NCBI GenBank assembly: GCA_024654525.1
Contig: JANLHI010000013.1
Span: forward strand, 18,036-82,035
Source of the DNA: Patescibacteria group bacterium
GTDB taxonomy: Bacteria > Patescibacteriota > Minisyncoccia > UBA6257 > 2-01-FULL-56-20
Length of the DNA stretch: 64,000 bases
Direction: 5' to 3'
The notes below the pieces were generated by a model. It made no database searches. It was not told the DNA's origin and worked only from the letters and a program-made list of their open reading frames with translations. A program made the position numbers and the translations under genes. Positions 35,196-52,825 of this stretch are shown piece after piece. The first letter of the stretch is position 1. Each line of letters begins with the position of its first letter.

Positions 35196-35267
35196 GTCCC
35201 CATAGCTCAACGGATAGAGCGTATCCCTGCGAAGGATGAGATAGAGGTTCAATTCCTCTTGGGGACA
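35196..35267 (+). tRNA. tRNA-Arg (anticodon GCG)
   Basis: Manual cloverleaf: acceptor GTCCCCA/TGGGGAC, D arm GCTC/GAGC, anticodon stem TATCC/GGATG with loop CTGCGAA, T arm AGAGG-TTCAATT-CCTCT. No CCA encoded. Confidence 0.8.
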
Positions 35268-35435
35268 CAATCGTTGTTTATAATTAGTGTCCCGAGGAAT
35301 TGAATGGGAAGGGGGTCGGGGAAACGGGAGTTTCACCGTGGCGGAAGCGTTGAAACCGCAGGGTTTCAAGGAGCGTAGCGACGTGAAATTCCTCTTGGGG
35401 ACACAATCGTTGTTTATAATTAGTGTCCCGAGGAA
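35251..35435 (+). repeat. 49-bp direct repeat pair (35251-35299 and 35387-35435) duplicating the tRNA-Arg 3' end plus 30 nt downstream
   Basis: AATTCCTCTTGGGGACACAATCGTTGTTTATAATTAGTGTCCCGAGGAA occurs twice 136 bp apart. Each copy contains the hairpin GGGACAC...GTGTCCC. Confidence 0.75.
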
Positions 35436-50636: not shown

Positions 50637-50644
50637 CCGGATCA

Positions 50645-50682
50645 CTACACCATTCGACGATCGGCGGATGGTGTAGTGAGTC
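50645..50682 (+). terminator. hairpin downstream of ligA (weak terminator)
   Basis: CACTACACCAT-14 nt-ATGGTGTAGTG stem with a poor T-run (AGTCCTCTGTTTG). Confidence 0.3.
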
Positions 50683-50729
50683 CTCTGTTTGAAAAATAAA
50701 GGAGAGTTCCTTATACTGTGTGGGGCTAT

Positions 50730-50804
50730 GCGGGCGTGGTGTAGCCCGGTTAACACGTTCCCCTGTCACGGGAAAGATCGCCGGTTCGAATCCGGTCGCC
50801 CGCG
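50730..50804 (+). tRNA. tRNA-Asp (anticodon GTC)
   Basis: Acceptor GCGGGCG/CGCCCGC, D stem GTGT/ACAC, anticodon stem TTCCC/GGGAA with loop CTGTCAC, T loop TTCGAAT, discriminator G. Confidence 0.85.
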
Positions 50805-50805
50805 C

Positions 50806-51250
50806 CGCGTAAAGACTTGCTAAAGCAAGTCCACGCGGCTTCGCCCGAGAAGTCGAAGTGGATGAAGCTGAAGCTTAGTCTTAGCGAGTCGCGTGATGAG
50901 CTTGGCACGTGAGGTAACCCTTTTACGTGCCGTAGCGAATTTTACGCGACAGCGCTAGGATTTATACATGTACTGGGTGTATGTTTTAGAGAATCAGAAT
51001 GACAAGGGCTGGTATATTGGTTATACCATTAATCTTGAGAAGAGGTTAAGGGAACACCAGTCTGGATACGGCTCTCGCACAACAAGTGCCAGGAATAATT
51101 GGGAAATGATATATTACGAAGGTTATAAAAATCAACTAGATGCAAAAGGCAGAGAGAGATTTCTGAAAAGTGGTTCGGGTAGGAAATTTCTGAAGAAGCA
51201 GCTTAAAAATTATTTAGGCGTTGAGTAGTGAACCATCCGGTCGCCCGCGC
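50806..51250 (+). mobile_element. putative ~445-bp mini-element carrying a GIY-YIG gene, inserted at the tRNA-Asp 3' end
   Basis: 16-nt direct repeat ATCCGGTCGCCCGCGC at 50790-50805 (tRNA 3' end) and again at 51235-51250, flanking a single GIY-YIG ORF. Confidence 0.4.
50968..51228 (+). CDS. GIY-YIG nuclease family protein (UPF0213-like)
   Basis: 86 aa with the GIY-YIG motif YWVYVL...KGWYIGYTINLEKRLREH. Confidence 0.75.
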   Translation: MYWVYVLENQNDKGWYIGYTINLEKRLREHQSGYGSRTTSARNNWEMIYYEGYKNQLDAKGRERFLKSGSGRKFLKKQLKNYLGVE

Positions 51251-51263
51251 GTTAGAAATCTGT

Positions 51264-51295
51264 TCGCCCCGCTTTGCGGGGCGTTACAGTTTCTT
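51264..51295 (+). terminator. hairpin downstream of the GIY-YIG element
   Basis: CGCCCCGC-ttt-GCGGGGCG stem followed by TTACAGTTTCTT (weak T-run). Confidence 0.3.
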
Positions 51296-51633
51296 ACGTC
51301 CCGCCGTAGATCGGGAGTAGCGAATATGCGAAGGTGGACAAGTCTGTTCGCCTCCGCATCTTAAAAGGGATGTGAGTAAAAGACAGTCCCACCATAAAAG
51401 TCCAGATAAAATAATCATATGTTGTACTCCTTTTGGCGATAGGACTAGCTTGCCAATGGGAACAATCAAAACTTCTGTGCTTAAGTTTCAGACGGGTGCA
51501 GGAGTTTTGAAGAAAGAAGGAGATGGTTTTATGGAGTGTATTTATTTGCCTTCACAGTGAGAAACTGCAAAAGCCATCTTTGAACCTGTTGGTATTTCGG
51601 GTTTATTAAGAATTTTGATAAAATAAAAATAAT

Positions 51634-52263
51634 ATGAATACCAATGATTCAGCAAAAACAATAGTGTGCTACGGCGACTCAAACACTTGGGGTAGAGCTC
51701 CTAAAGCTGGGCGTTATCCTAGAAGTGTAAGATGGACGGGTTTTTTGCAAAAATTACTGGGGGATAATTATGAGGTGATAAGTGAAGGAGTTAGCGGAAG
51801 AACATTCGTAGTAGTAGACCCAGAAAATCCTTGGAGGTCTGGCATTACGCACTTGAAATCAATTTTAAGAAGCAATTTACCAATTGATGTAATGATAATA
51901 ATGCTTGGGACTAACGATACTAAGGATAAATTTAATCTAGAATTGGAAGATATTGGAAAACATCTGCAACAAACAATTGATTTAATAAGAAAAGAAGATA
52001 TAAAGAATATCTTGATTGTGTGTCCGTCTGATATTGTTATACCTGAAAGTGGCATCGCAGACCCAAGGTATATAGGGGGTTCAGATAAAATGAAAAAATT
52101 GCCGAAACTCTATAAGGAGGTTGCAGATAAAAATAATTGCCATTTTATAGATGCGGGGCAATATATTGCTTCAAGCACAATAGATGGCCTTCACCTTGAA
52201 CCCGAAGCCCATAAAAAACTTGCGGAGGTGTTAAGAGATGAAATCCTTAAAATGGCAATATAA
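51634..52263 (+). CDS. SGNH/GDSL-family hydrolase
   Basis: GDSNT catalytic-Ser block near the N-terminus and a DGLHL block near the C-terminus. The gene is visibly AT-rich relative to its neighbours. Confidence 0.8.
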   Translation: MNTNDSAKTIVCYGDSNTWGRAPKAGRYPRSVRWTGFLQKLLGDNYEVISEGVSGRTFVVVDPENPWRSGITHLKSILRSNLPIDVMIIMLGTNDTKDKFNLELEDIGKHLQQTIDLIRKEDIKNILIVCPSDIVIPESGIADPRYIGGSDKMKKLPKLYKEVADKNNCHFIDAGQYIASSTIDGLHLEPEAHKKLAEVLRDEILKMAI

Positions 52264-52444
52264 CCATCTATGACCGGTGATTTGGAAAATAAAATAAGGA
52301 GAGCAAAAGAATTTACCACTACTTCGAGGTAATTTTCAAAAGAGTGTATGGAGTCGAGTATTCCGATGAAGAAGCGCGCGAGTCCGACTATTTTTAACTG
52401 ATTAATCTCGATAAAGATAGGCAAAAAAATGCTATGATAAGCTG

Positions 52445-52825
52445 ATGTTTCAAGAAAAGAAAAAAATTCTTTGGGAAATTGCGCTATCCGTGGGTATTGT
52501 GTTTATTCCCACATATTTTATTTATCAAAGTTTGGCAGAAGTCACCTCATTTTGGGAGGCGCAGAATTTATGGAGTATCGCACTTGCAGTGTGCTGGATA
52601 GTGGTTGCTGCCGGTTATTATCACCAAGGATGGTTAGTGCACACAAAACGAAAATCAGATGATGTGTCTCTTGTGCTTCCTTCTGCAGTGTTTATGGTGC
52701 AATGCATTTTGTTTGTAAAAGGAATTTATTATCAGGATTGGTCTCTCATATGGGGGGCAATAGTGGTCAATTCCGGCGTAGTATTTAGTTTGTTTCAGAT
52801 TTGGAGGGTACGAAAGAATTCATAA
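52445..52825 (+). CDS. membrane protein (hypothetical)
   Basis: 126-aa ORF with four hydrophobic helices. Confidence 0.45.
   Translation: MFQEKKKILWEIALSVGIVFIPTYFIYQSLAEVTSFWEAQNLWSIALAVCWIVVAAGYYHQGWLVHTKRKSDDVSLVLPSAVFMVQCILFVKGIYYQDWSLIWGAIVVNSGVVFSLFQIWRVRKNS

Follow-up and report, generated by a model that had tools for sequence, protein, structure and literature searches.

A candidate hairpin-bearing GIY-YIG mini-element at the 3′ end of tRNA-Asp, with relatives at tRNA and tmRNA genes of Patescibacteria

The segment at 50806-51234 of the window (the whole 64-kb stretch of DNA that was analysed) has, judged from sequence comparisons, about an even chance of belonging to a widespread family of miniature mobile elements, each copy made up of DNA hairpin modules and one GIY-YIG nuclease gene. 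The segment is ∼430 bp (∼0.4 kb) long and combines a nuclease gene of 86 codons with two conserved hairpins, and the insertion point is the exact 3′ end of tRNA-Asp, which is left intact. The most likely reading, given moderate confidence, is that of a mini mobile element that depends on its hairpins, is driven by its nuclease and uses tRNA 3′ ends as targets. The features of the locus are listed in Table 1.

Table 1. Features of the tRNA-Asp locus and the putative element.
Feature	Position	Strand	Location or role	Basis
Promoter-like site, TTGAAA-17-TATACT	50689-50717	+	upstream of tRNA-Asp	consensus match only
tRNA-Asp (GTC), intact	50730-50806	+	host gene; 3′ end is the insertion site	ARAGORN, Rfam
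DR-L, left direct repeat, ATCCGGTCGCCCGCGC	50790-50805	+	tRNA positions 59-73 plus 1 nt	
Module 1, CCGCG-TAAAG-[ACTTGC taaa GCAAGT]-CCA-CGCGG	50805-50838	+	left end of element	sequence, predicted hairpin, conservation
Inter-module linker, including GGCTTCGCC mini-hairpin motif	50839-50887	+		
Module 2, GTCGCGT-GA...TTTT-ACGCGAC	50888-50950	+	just 5′ of ORF; inverted copy of module 1 architecture	
Extra module, GGCACGTGAGGTAACCCTTTTACGTGCC	50904-50931	+	nested in module 2 loop	
GIY-YIG nuclease ORF, 86 aa, intact	50968-51228	+	UPF0213/Slx1-like standalone catalytic domain type	Pfam, fold
DR-R, right direct repeat	51235-51250	+	identical to DR-L	
Hairpin, CGCCCCGC-TTT-GCGGGGCG	51265-51283	+	directly 3′ of DR-R	sequence
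AT-rich stretch	51400-52825	+	distal to tRNA	34-40% G+C
GDSL-lipase gene	51634-52263		within AT-rich stretch	
Small gene, no Pfam match	52445-52825		within AT-rich stretch	

The tRNA-Asp gene ends at 50806 according to ARAGORN and at 50804 according to Rfam (50730-50804, 65.3 bits). The 16-mer at its end spans the second half of the T-loop, the 3′ strand of the T-stem, the 3′ strand of the acceptor stem, the discriminator G and one further base. An earlier reading made from the sequence only had reported that these 16 nt recur exactly downstream of a nuclease gene, and this holds, as there are exactly two matches in the window and still two when two mismatches are permitted (0.03 expected by chance; two matches in 0 of 100 shuffles). 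Hence the 16-mer is not a common motif in the window, a possibility that the same reading had raised against itself. The two repeats are 445 bp apart, start to start, and 6 nt (TGAACC) lie between the TAG stop of the ORF and DR-R.

The single ORF ahead of the second repeat, also recognised earlier as GIY-YIG, matches Pfam GIY-YIG (PF01541) with an E-value of 9e-18 and 64.8 bits (cut-off 22.6), covering 74 of the 78 profile positions. Residues Y5, Y16, R26, H30 and E63 are intact, and none of them varies among 35 family members; judged from their counterparts in I-TevI and UvrC, we take their catalytic roles to be those of the GIY Tyr, the YIG Tyr, the Arg, the His/Tyr and the metal-binding Glu, respectively. 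The AF2 model has an alpha/beta GIY-YIG fold (pLDDT 91), and its Foldseek matches are UPF0213, Slx1, I-TevI and UvrC nuclease domains. Among solved structures, those of UPF0213 proteins and of the nuclease domain of Slx1 (rmsd 1.9 Å over 70 residues) are the closest, with the best sequence matches to 1zg2 (E 4.9e-13) and 1ywl (E 1.7e-9). The single-domain proteins of UPF0213/YhbQ (COG2827), which are ∼90-100 aa, and Slx1 are the nearest known relatives, UPF0213 by sequence and fold and Slx1 by fold, although Slx1 acts with Slx4 on branched DNA in eukaryotes. No NCBIfam model reached its cut-off for the 86-aa protein (TIGR01453, 18.6 bits against a cut-off of 56), indicating a distinct subfamily, and the C-terminal motif GRERFLKSGSGR-x-FLKKQL differs from the usual UPF0213 C-terminus. 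The catalytic domain occupies the entire length of the protein, with no DNA-binding domain. In the literature searched, no assigned function was found for UPF0213/YhbQ, nor any link between UPF0213 proteins and tRNA ends or hairpin repeats. A phage or defence-system origin was considered and rejected, as PADLOC profiles gave no anti-phage defence match for the GIY-YIG protein or its neighbours and there was no phage tblastn match.

The unit had been described as carrying only a GIY-YIG gene, and this part of the description has to be given up. The 160-nt "spacer" that separates the tRNA from the ATG belongs to the element. Within it are two hairpin modules that are conserved, show covariation and accompany the gene, and each is an inverted copy of the other. 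The 5′ strand of module 1 begins in the CC after the tRNA discriminator base, and this module is kept in 72 of 81 loci, among which its outer stem shows compensatory changes. Variable stem positions, located with anchors that do not require pairing, are paired in 82-98% of loci versus 47-74% in shuffles, and the observed pairing was reached by 0 of 2000 shuffles. Inner stems are almost purely Watson-Crick without strand bias, and G-U pairs make up only 1-6%. An asymmetry between G-T and A-C in the outer stem, considered as an indication of which strand folds, was dropped, most cases being mis-anchored nested modules. The linker forms a terminator-like hairpin in most relatives and the window copy is without one. 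The GGCACGTGAGGTAACCCTTTTACGTGCC module reads as a nested insertion, because the corresponding loop in locus L021 is without it.

The start of module 1 follows 56 of 78 tRNAs with the gene downstream versus 1 of 56 tRNAs without it. Module matches are likewise concentrated near the gene, with 255 at ≤700 nt from a GIY-YIG gene and 19 at greater distances, and no further copy was found anywhere in the 64-kb window. Modules were found in both orientations, nested, and also solo, as in L080, where three solo modules lie within 6 kb, and L028, where a solo module interrupts DR-R. Seven loci outside of Patescibacteria carry the hairpins as inverted repeats on both sides of the ORF, and in Verrucomicrobia the ORF is bracketed by the same hairpins in the manner of terminal inverted repeats. 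In Patescibacteria both modules are 5′ of the ORF, which therefore lies outside the inverted pair, and a module follows the ORF in only ∼4 of ∼95 such copies.

Site-specific insertion at the tRNA 3′ end, as first proposed from the repeat, is supported by the polymorphism of the site among relatives. The three nearest LigA relatives (70-73% amino acid identity) keep the pilin-ligA-tRNA-Asp synteny, and at tRNA-Asp have one 16-mer only, no GIY-YIG gene and no module. These are the empty sites that the sequence-only reading had suggested looking for, so that its other objection to itself, a gene kept in the same context in all related genomes, also fails, and the presence/absence at this conserved tRNA-Asp site is between relatives at 70-73% LigA identity rather than at strain level. 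A strain-level empty junction, TCGAATCCGGTCGCCCGCGC joined to GTTAGAAATCTGTT, was absent in an exact search of JGI metagenomes. However the unit does recur elsewhere: a second metagenomic contig, L086, contains the same arrangement of tRNA end, element and repeat between unrelated flanks. The two copies are 95% identical in the tRNA 3′ half, 94% in the spacer and 84% in the ORF, DR-R is present, and the flanks are at background identity, such that the similarity starts inside the tRNA and stops exactly at the end of DR-R. In an excised or circular form of the element, an outward-facing junction would be expected to link …GAGTAGTGAACC to CGCGTAAAGACTTGC…, either directly or through a single 16-mer.

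Taken over the loci compared, the family is large and common at the tRNA and tmRNA gene ends of ultra-small Patescibacteria. In 52 of 80 genome loci, the gene is preceded by a same-strand tRNA that ends ≤700 nt from it, in keeping with the earlier proposal that the tRNA end is the target. The hosts include tRNAs for at least nine amino acids, and tmRNA is directly upstream of the gene in five loci (L053, L066, L076, L113 and L115). One MAG has two copies at two tRNA-Gln genes, and a single tRNA cluster can carry as many as two or three copies. One copy is at a non-tRNA site inside a tyrosine-recombinase ORF, and a 42%-identical relative (L118) is inside a 16S rRNA gene. Identical proteins (P0028 and P0031) were found in 20-24 contigs from many samples and always with the same neighbours, suggesting that movement is rare, and these contigs gave no sign of very recent jumps.

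The distribution bears on a very unlikely alternative, in which the nuclease gene is a resident, non-mobile host gene with a tRNA-linked cellular role, co-transcribed with the tRNA, the hairpins are signals for RNA processing or regulation and the repeat is a local tandem duplication irrelevant to mobility. Strong conservation of the protein (60-86% identity across Patescibacteria), the stable position over many samples, the lack of a repeat at most copies and the very stable predicted RNA fold of the leader region (z = -7.4) would all be expected of such a gene. A patchy distribution with empty sites in the nearest relatives and the same unit between unrelated flanks would not, and neither would the range of tRNA types and tmRNA, the multiple copies per tRNA cluster, the interrupted recombinase ORF, the nested and solo modules, or the repeated duplication at one tRNA.

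A tRNA-end duplication was found in about 12 loci. Exact duplications of 16-22 nt are present in L013, L026, L028, L030, L041, L023 (three copies) and L086, imperfect ones in L003, L046 and L087, and there is no detectable duplication in about 44 of the 52 genome loci with an upstream tRNA. In L122 the duplication is 53-75 nt and includes non-conserved trailer sequence, as does a 56-nt duplication at a tRNA-Arg in the window. Across the family the start of the repeat varies (T-loop positions 54-60), as does its length (16-75 nt), and each host carries its own acceptor-stem variant in both repeat copies.

Insertion by an integrase classically leaves a duplicated tRNA 3′ end, and the segment could in principle be an integrative cassette that is non-autonomous and relies on a tyrosine or serine recombinase from another locus, with the 16-mer as the attL/attR core and the GIY-YIG gene as cargo. 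Tandem arrays, as in L023, look like the accretion seen at att sites, and the region 3′ of tRNA-Asp is variable and AT-rich. Integrative islands and prophages at tRNA and tmRNA genes similarly insert at the 3′ end, restore the gene, leave a direct repeat and accrete in tandem, but they are 5-100 kb and include a recombinase, whereas the element is ∼0.43 kb and has none. No recombinase Pfam match is present within 9 kb downstream, pilins and ligA are upstream, and the element has one ORF. The supposed cargo is also constant, with the same gene and the same hairpins in >100 loci from two phyla, and neither the variable start and length of the repeat nor the host-specific acceptor-stem variant in both copies is expected of an att core. 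This explanation is considered highly improbable, the least credible of those weighed here.

The sequence-only reading had favoured a homing-endonuclease type of selfish element. GIY-YIG homing endonucleases exist, and homing by itself leaves the target unduplicated and does not depend on hairpin ends. Presence/absence at the tRNA site stands in favour of the label, while the bare 86-aa domain, the target duplication, the terminal inverted hairpins and the non-tRNA sites stand against it, and the label is thus unproven and partly contradicted. In its full form, this doubtful alternative supposes a classical free-standing homing endonuclease gene: empty tRNA-Asp alleles would be cut and the cassette copied from a filled allele during repair, with the tRNA body as left homology arm, the 16-nt DR-R as portable right arm, and the hairpins as expression or processing signals. 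The closest precedents are T4 Seg proteins and I-TevI, which likewise are selfish units with GIY-YIG as the sole protein, are associated with tRNA genes and are present or absent among relatives, and SegB lies within the T4 tRNA gene cluster, which it also cuts (PMC2330249). Family proteins cluster by tRNA type, as tRNA-type-specific homing clades would. The right junction does not vary within a lineage (window, L086 and L089; L041 and L023) and is different between lineages, while DR-R fits the local tRNA variant, and both this and the extent of the window-L086 similarity, together with the empty sites, would be accommodated by homing. However, Seg proteins and I-TevI are about 200-250 aa with a C-terminal sequence-reading DNA-binding domain, and because the element protein is a bare UPF0213/Slx1-like catalytic domain without one, with Slx1 and UPF0213 rather than I-TevI as nearest structures, it is not a classical homing endonuclease. 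Persistence of an intact tRNA in the filled allele leaves immunity unexplained, duplications that include non-conserved trailer (tRNA-Arg in the window and L122) cannot be donor-borne, and 16 nt is very short for homologous recombination. Hairpins in both orientations, terminal and inverted, solo or nested, and copies at non-tRNA sites also argue against homing.

In the preferred reading of a hairpin-dependent mobile element, the protein would be a structure-specific nickase acting on hairpin or cruciform DNA, since 86 aa is too small for reading a long DNA sequence. Its substrates would be its own modules, i.e. the element ends, and the T-arm/acceptor region of tRNA genes. Nicking at two offset points, in the T-loop and at the gene end, would produce a staggered break, and joining of the element followed by fill-in would give rise to the 16-22-nt duplication. 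Module 1 would pair with the discriminator base and the CC after the tRNA, and in most copies the element would bring a new terminator; both would keep the tRNA gene functional, so that the insertion would be tolerated. The conserved tRNA 3′ end would serve as the landing site for spread between genomes, possibly aided by the short tRNA homology on both sides. Against this scheme, the lineage-constant right junction fits an inherited junction better than a fresh staggered cut each time, which would imply spread by recombination. The lack of a duplication at most copies, the position of the ORF outside the inverted pair in Patescibacteria, the rarity of movement and the absence of further modules from the window also speak against it.

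A broader proposal is put forward only tentatively. The UPF0213-type GIY-YIG protein may be the mobilising enzyme ("transposase") of an unrecognised class of prokaryotic mobile DNA that comprises hairpin-ended mini-elements and REP-like solo hairpins. A structure-specific GIY-YIG nickase would cut and join these elements, and the preferred landing site in Patescibacteria would be the T-arm/acceptor end of tRNA and tmRNA genes. Such a class would be the GIY-YIG counterpart of REPIN/RAYT and IS200/IS605, and would provide UPF0213/YhbQ with a function. The REP/REPIN-RAYT system also has short imperfect palindromes in inverted doublets, one nuclease gene with the palindromes inverted around or beside it, and solo copies (PMC3116915, PMC3337134). 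However, RAYT is an HUH tyrosine transposase and the sole ORF of the element is GIY-YIG, and REPINs reach hundreds of copies per genome without tRNA-end targeting whereas the modules described here cluster at the gene. IS200/IS605 elements (TnpA, subterminal hairpins, single-strand transposition) are likewise very small with hairpin ends and a specific short target adjacent, but use an HUH Y1 enzyme, have hairpins on the same strand and make no target duplication, unlike the inverted hairpins and 16-22-nt duplication seen here. Insertion sequences with GIY-YIG in rRNA genes of CPR bacteria are from the same phylum and are also small non-intron insertions in structured-RNA genes, but sit inside rRNA helices rather than at a tRNA end; that account does not use the terms for tRNA genes or direct repeats, and no conserved hairpin modules were noted in it (PMC11270868). 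In the literature searched, neither these hairpins nor GIY-YIG genes placed behind tRNAs were found described, although a description may exist outside it.

If the preferred reading is correct, this family would be among the smallest apparently autonomous mobile elements known (∼0.4 kb, 86-aa protein), and the tRNA and tmRNA 3′ ends that are classical landing pads of integrase islands would be used by a completely different enzyme. A concrete function would be offered for UPF0213/YhbQ, that of a hairpin-specific nuclease with a known cognate hairpin, and a tiny nuclease with a defined DNA-hairpin partner may be of interest as a tool. It would also account for recurrent small insertions and duplicated tRNA ends in streamlined Patescibacteria genomes, which bear on tRNA annotation and on the reading of variable tRNA-adjacent regions.

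The hairpins may act at the RNA level, in tRNA 3′ processing or regulation. Rfam covariance models gave no family for the 160-nt leader, non-tRNA matches having E ≥ 0.13 and falling far under gathering scores. A pseudo T-arm formed by complementarity between the T-arm and the last bases before DR-R was considered from L028, L041 and L023, and was rejected as it is not general (window, L013, L026 and L030). The CGCCCCGC-TTT-GCGGGGCG hairpin fails a strict terminator scan, and is probably the original tRNA-Asp trailer/terminator displaced by the insertion, by analogy with L013, L030, L046 and L089, in which the tRNA's own canonical terminator comes after DR-R. The AT-rich island noted earlier just distal to the element is evident in the G+C content (34-40% at 51400-52800 versus ∼45-50% in the surroundings), and it is a variable region outside the element, because the sequence 3′ of tRNA-Asp is different in every relative. 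At the other side of the locus, the TTGAAA-17-TATACT site is the probable tRNA-Asp promoter, and the element would be transcribed by read-through from it.

A scan of the window found the 16-mer ATCCGGTCGCCCGCGC, which corresponds to tRNA-Asp positions 59-73 plus one base, exactly twice, and still only twice when two mismatches were allowed (chance expectation 0.03). The two copies enclose 161 nt of non-coding DNA and a single ORF (86 aa) matching Pfam GIY-YIG (E 9e-18), with six bases between the stop codon and the second copy. The tRNA-end duplication around a GIY-YIG ORF proposed in a sequence-only reading is thereby confirmed, and the AT-rich island reported there is real. However, the statement that only a GIY-YIG gene is carried does not hold, as the leader between tRNA-Asp and the ATG contains hairpin modules that also belong to the element. 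The window derives from a Patescibacteria MAG, and a 100%-identical protein, P0001, is found on a 121-kb NCBI contig.

Coordinates of features in the window and in compared loci (L-numbers)
Feature	Sequence	Position	Remark
tRNA-Asp(GTC)	window	50730-50806	ARAGORN
tRNA-Asp(GTC)	window	50730-50804	Rfam, 65 bits
Left 16-nt repeat	window	50790-50805	
Right 16-nt repeat	window	51235-51250	
GIY-YIG ORF	window	50968-51228	
Module 1	window	50805-50838	
Module 2	window	50888-50950	
Third module	window	50904-50931	nested in module 2 loop
AT-rich stretch	window	51400-52800	34-40% G+C
AT-rich segment with genes	window	51400-52825	immediately distal to element
Non-coding DNA past right repeat	window	51251-51633	380 nt
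Inverted repeat after ligA stop	window	50642-50679	19 nt
tRNA-Arg(GCG)	window	35196-35268	
tRNA-Arg with insertion	window	35196-35435	
tRNA-Arg direct repeats	window	35244-35299, 35380-35435	56 nt, 95% identical
ORF-less insert	window	35300-35387	
tmRNA-end element	L053	2450-2838	
tmRNA-end element	L066	2424-2815	
tmRNA-end element	L076	2302-2708	
tmRNA-end element	L113	972-1379	
tmRNA-end element	L115	104-461	
Element in recombinase ORF	L075	2453-3410	Opitutaceae MAG
Element beside conserved gene	L062	3561-3900	Verrucomicrobia MAG
Element beside conserved gene	L080	3001-3400	Verrucomicrobia MAG
Relative in 16S rRNA gene	L118	1-1653	42% identical
Repeat around YhbQ-like ORF	L122	1388-1830	

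The nearest LigA proteins among 5.8 billion sequences (70-73% identity) led to three relatives that were compared at the tRNA-Asp locus: L081/L082, L083/L084 (Liptonbacteria) and L085. All three retain the upstream order prepilin peptidase, pilins, ligA, tRNA-Asp, and in each the tRNA end ...ATCCGG(T/C)CGCCCGCGC is followed immediately by unrelated DNA, with a single 16-mer and neither a GIY-YIG gene nor a hairpin module at this locus. The empty site to be looked for in related genomes is therefore present in all three. As the downstream DNA is different in each, this side of tRNA-Asp is a variable spot. The AT-rich segment, which includes a gene for a GDSL lipase and a small gene without any Pfam match, likewise looks variable and was possibly acquired. 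An exact search of JGI metagenomes for a strain-level empty junction gave no match.

The same tRNA-end/element/repeat unit occurs in L086, a 1.1-kb contig from another sample with a protein 86% identical to that of the window. Identity is 95% in the tRNA 3′ half, 94% in the leader and 84% in the ORF, and the right repeat (17 nt) is present; both flanks are at background level, the likeness being cut off exactly at the end of the right repeat. L089 has the leader and ORF end of the window, with TGAAACC joined to ATCCGGCCGCCCGCGC at the junction, and its right repeat is its own host's tRNA variant followed by a canonical terminator. The comparisons show a compact unit of hairpin modules and nuclease gene inserted at a tRNA 3′ end, the segment from T-loop to discriminator being duplicated. 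Relatives lack this unit, it recurs elsewhere with different flanks, and a large family shows the same pattern; that the gene is purely a resident of the host is unlikely. The 5′ half of the window tRNA-Asp (D-arm, 50730-50762) is 73% identical to that of L086 and of the closest relatives (L081, L085), whereas the 3′ half is 95-100% identical; this could reflect co-conversion with the element or simple divergence.

Module 1 begins directly at the tRNA end (CC-R-CG-T-AAAA, a variable inner hairpin, TCA-CG-Y-GG). Module 2, just 5′ of the ATG (G-N-C-N-CGTGA, a variable hairpin, TTTTACG-N-G-N-C), has the reverse-complement architecture. For a covariation test, modules were located by anchors with no complementarity requirement in ~85-95 non-redundant loci. 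Variable stem positions were paired in 82-98% of loci; shuffling gave 47-74% and, in 2000 rounds, never the observed value. Each position showed three or four Watson-Crick pair types. The module-1 start lies behind 56 of 78 tRNAs with the gene downstream, but of 56 other tRNAs in these loci only 1 has it. Module hits number 255 at ≤700 nt from a GIY-YIG gene and 19, mostly loose, farther off (547 kb). The modules accompany the gene, not tRNAs in general.

Read as RNA, the leader has a very stable predicted fold (-80 kcal/mol, z = -7.4), and may also have a role at the RNA level. The inner stems are near-pure Watson-Crick (1-6% G-U pairs) with no strand bias, and the motif works in both orientations relative to transcription, which points to modules that would act at the DNA level.

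In seven copies outside Patescibacteria (Verrucomicrobia and others), no tRNA is involved; module 1 is upstream and module 2 overlaps the stop codon, so that the gene is framed by ~27-bp hairpin inverted repeats. In one such copy, L075, module 1, the ORF and module 2 lie within a tyrosine-recombinase ORF, the N-terminal part of which extends to ...KGAKDR and the C-terminal ...LGH..TT..Y.H motif of which restarts past module 2. L080 has three further solo modules, including one inverted doublet, and the right tRNA repeat of L028 is broken by a solo module of 29 nt. In L062 and L080, from two different MAGs, one and the same conserved gene (N-terminus ...IDGTYELFRHFYGLRRF, resembling a 5′-3′ exonuclease) has the element directly at its 5′ end; either the location is conserved or the insertion is site-specific.

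Scanning one genome per species for the pattern gave 258 relatives, and in 52 of the best 80 loci the gene is 50-650 nt 3′ of a same-strand tRNA. The tRNA types are Met, Gln, Asp, Asn, Glu, Gly, Tyr and Trp, with Ile in metagenome loci, and protein clusters follow tRNA type; in some further loci the tRNA is truncated at the contig end. Five loci have the tmRNA (ssrA) 3′ end instead, and these elements form one clade in which module 2 is nested within module 1. Through the relative within a 16S rRNA gene (L118), the family is linked to insertions in CPR bacterial rRNA genes that encode GIY-YIG proteins, as already reported (PMC11270868). Some MAGs have two copies, as at tRNA-Gln(CTG) and tRNA-Gln(TTG) (L065 and L074; leader 99%, ORF ~87% identical, the likeness ending at the stop codon). 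As identical proteins (P0028, P0031) always keep the same neighbours across 20-24 contigs, movement is rare and most copies are old.

Six loci with no upstream tRNA (L002, L005, L016, L025, L089 and L108) share the left flank GGTTCTAAC...(A/T)CGCGCC, a pseudo T-arm plus acceptor-stem 3′ strand; L089 nevertheless retains a right tRNA-Asp repeat and terminator. In L098, L099, L102, L106, L009 and L114, tRNA-Met-like 3′ ends (...GGTGCAATTCC...CCCCGCAACCA) adjoin module 1. ARAGORN called no tRNA at these ends and the upstream part appears interrupted; the tRNA genes here may be disrupted or of an unusual kind.

Exact 16-22-nt duplications of the tRNA 3′ end are found 3′ of the ORF in L013 (Met), L026 and L030 (Gln), L028 and L041 (Asp), and L086, and decayed ones in L003, L046 and L087; about 44 of the 52 genome loci with an upstream tRNA have no detectable repeat. 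When a control region 5′ of the tRNA was examined in 53 loci, a single match of 11 nt or longer turned up. Repeats start in the T-loop (positions 54-60) and always end within ~3 nt of the tRNA end. Both copies have the acceptor-stem variant of their host and, where it can be seen, the tRNA's own terminator comes after the right copy. L023 has three tRNA-Asp-end copies in the order tRNA, degraded insert, repeat, intact element, repeat, and the degraded insert terminates in the last 17 nt of a GIY-YIG gene.

Longer repeats were also seen. In L122, a distant (33% identical), canonical YhbQ-like GIY-YIG ORF with no hairpin modules lies between direct repeats of 53-75 nt that comprise the T-arm and 3′ end of tRNA-Asn with trailer and terminator; the stop codon of this ORF is within the right repeat. 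Behind the window tRNA-Arg, a small ORF-less insertion of ~80 nt is enclosed by a repeat that spans the tRNA from its T-arm to its end and a further 30 nt of trailer. As these repeats (53-75 and 56 nt) include non-conserved trailer, the longer duplications must have been made from the host's own DNA.

Profile searches place the protein nearest to the solved UPF0213 structures BH0048 (E 5e-13) and EF2693 (2e-9), then Slx1. Over 70 residues, its AlphaFold model (pLDDT 91) fits the Slx1 nuclease domain to 1.9 A; matches to I-TevI and UvrC are poorer. Residues Y5, Y16, R26, H30 and E63 are invariant, 86 aa leave no space for a DNA-binding domain, and NCBIfam, PADLOC and phage searches gave no match.

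The finding is real, with more to it than first described, and the following mechanism is a proposal. A bare Slx1-like nuclease would be expected to recognise structure, not a long sequence, and its cognate structure would be the conserved hairpin, the only other component kept across phyla. The T-arm and acceptor end of tRNA and tmRNA genes would present a similarly structured target, where two offset nicks, then joining and fill-in, would produce the duplications seen. The ends of the duplications match structural landmarks, namely the T-loop on one side and the acceptor-stem end or a trailer hairpin on the other. Pairing of module 1 with the discriminator base and the CC behind the tRNA, together with the terminator that most copies add, would keep the tRNA functional.

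Recombination-based homing is the chief rival; in it, the tRNA and the short right repeat would serve as homology arms. It accounts better than transposition for the lineage-constant right junction and the tRNA-specific clades, but does not explain why a DNA-binding domain is missing, why the hairpin ends are inverted, why modules occur solo and nested, or why some insertions are outside tRNA genes. Both may be at work, with transposition of the hairpin unit and recombinational spread of the composite.

The element works similarly to a selfish nuclease gene and has its use of hairpins in common with REP/REPIN-RAYT and IS200/IS605. However, it lacks the DNA-binding domain that defines homing endonucleases, the HUH enzyme of RAYT and TnpA systems and the recombinase of integrative elements; movement by an integrase acting in trans is unlikely. 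As a full-text literature search found, among the articles covered, only T4 SegB and the rRNA insertions of CPR bacteria (PMC11270868), the element is placed among nuclease-encoding selfish mini-elements, an already-known kind. A new class, with the element as a hairpin transposon driven by a GIY-YIG nuclease, is a tentative suggestion and less likely than not.

Four genomes (that of the window, L033, L036 and L046) have ORF-less inserts at tRNA-Arg, Asp, Met and Asn, in the last three between the tRNA and the GIY-YIG element. They share the core GGGGTCGGGGAAA..CCCCGTG..GAAACCGC..GGTTTC..GAGCG-AGCGACGTGAR and, when aligned, each opens with the local T-arm in antisense and ends at a sense copy from T-loop to 3′ end; at tRNA-Arg, the trailer and insert begin with an antisense copy of the same tRNA's T-arm and acceptor strand. 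They make up a second family of mini-insertions at tRNA ends.

Past the right repeat in the window, the non-coding stretch contains the 13-mer AAaTCTGTTCGCC twice (51256 and 51340) and fragments like decayed module sequence (GTAGCGAATATGCGAAG), which may be remnants of older elements. The perfect-type inverted repeat right after the ligA stop (TCACTACACCATTCGACGA/TCGGCGGATGGTGTAGTGA) has no spacer, and a similar hairpin is also found 3′ of ligA in L081 and L085.
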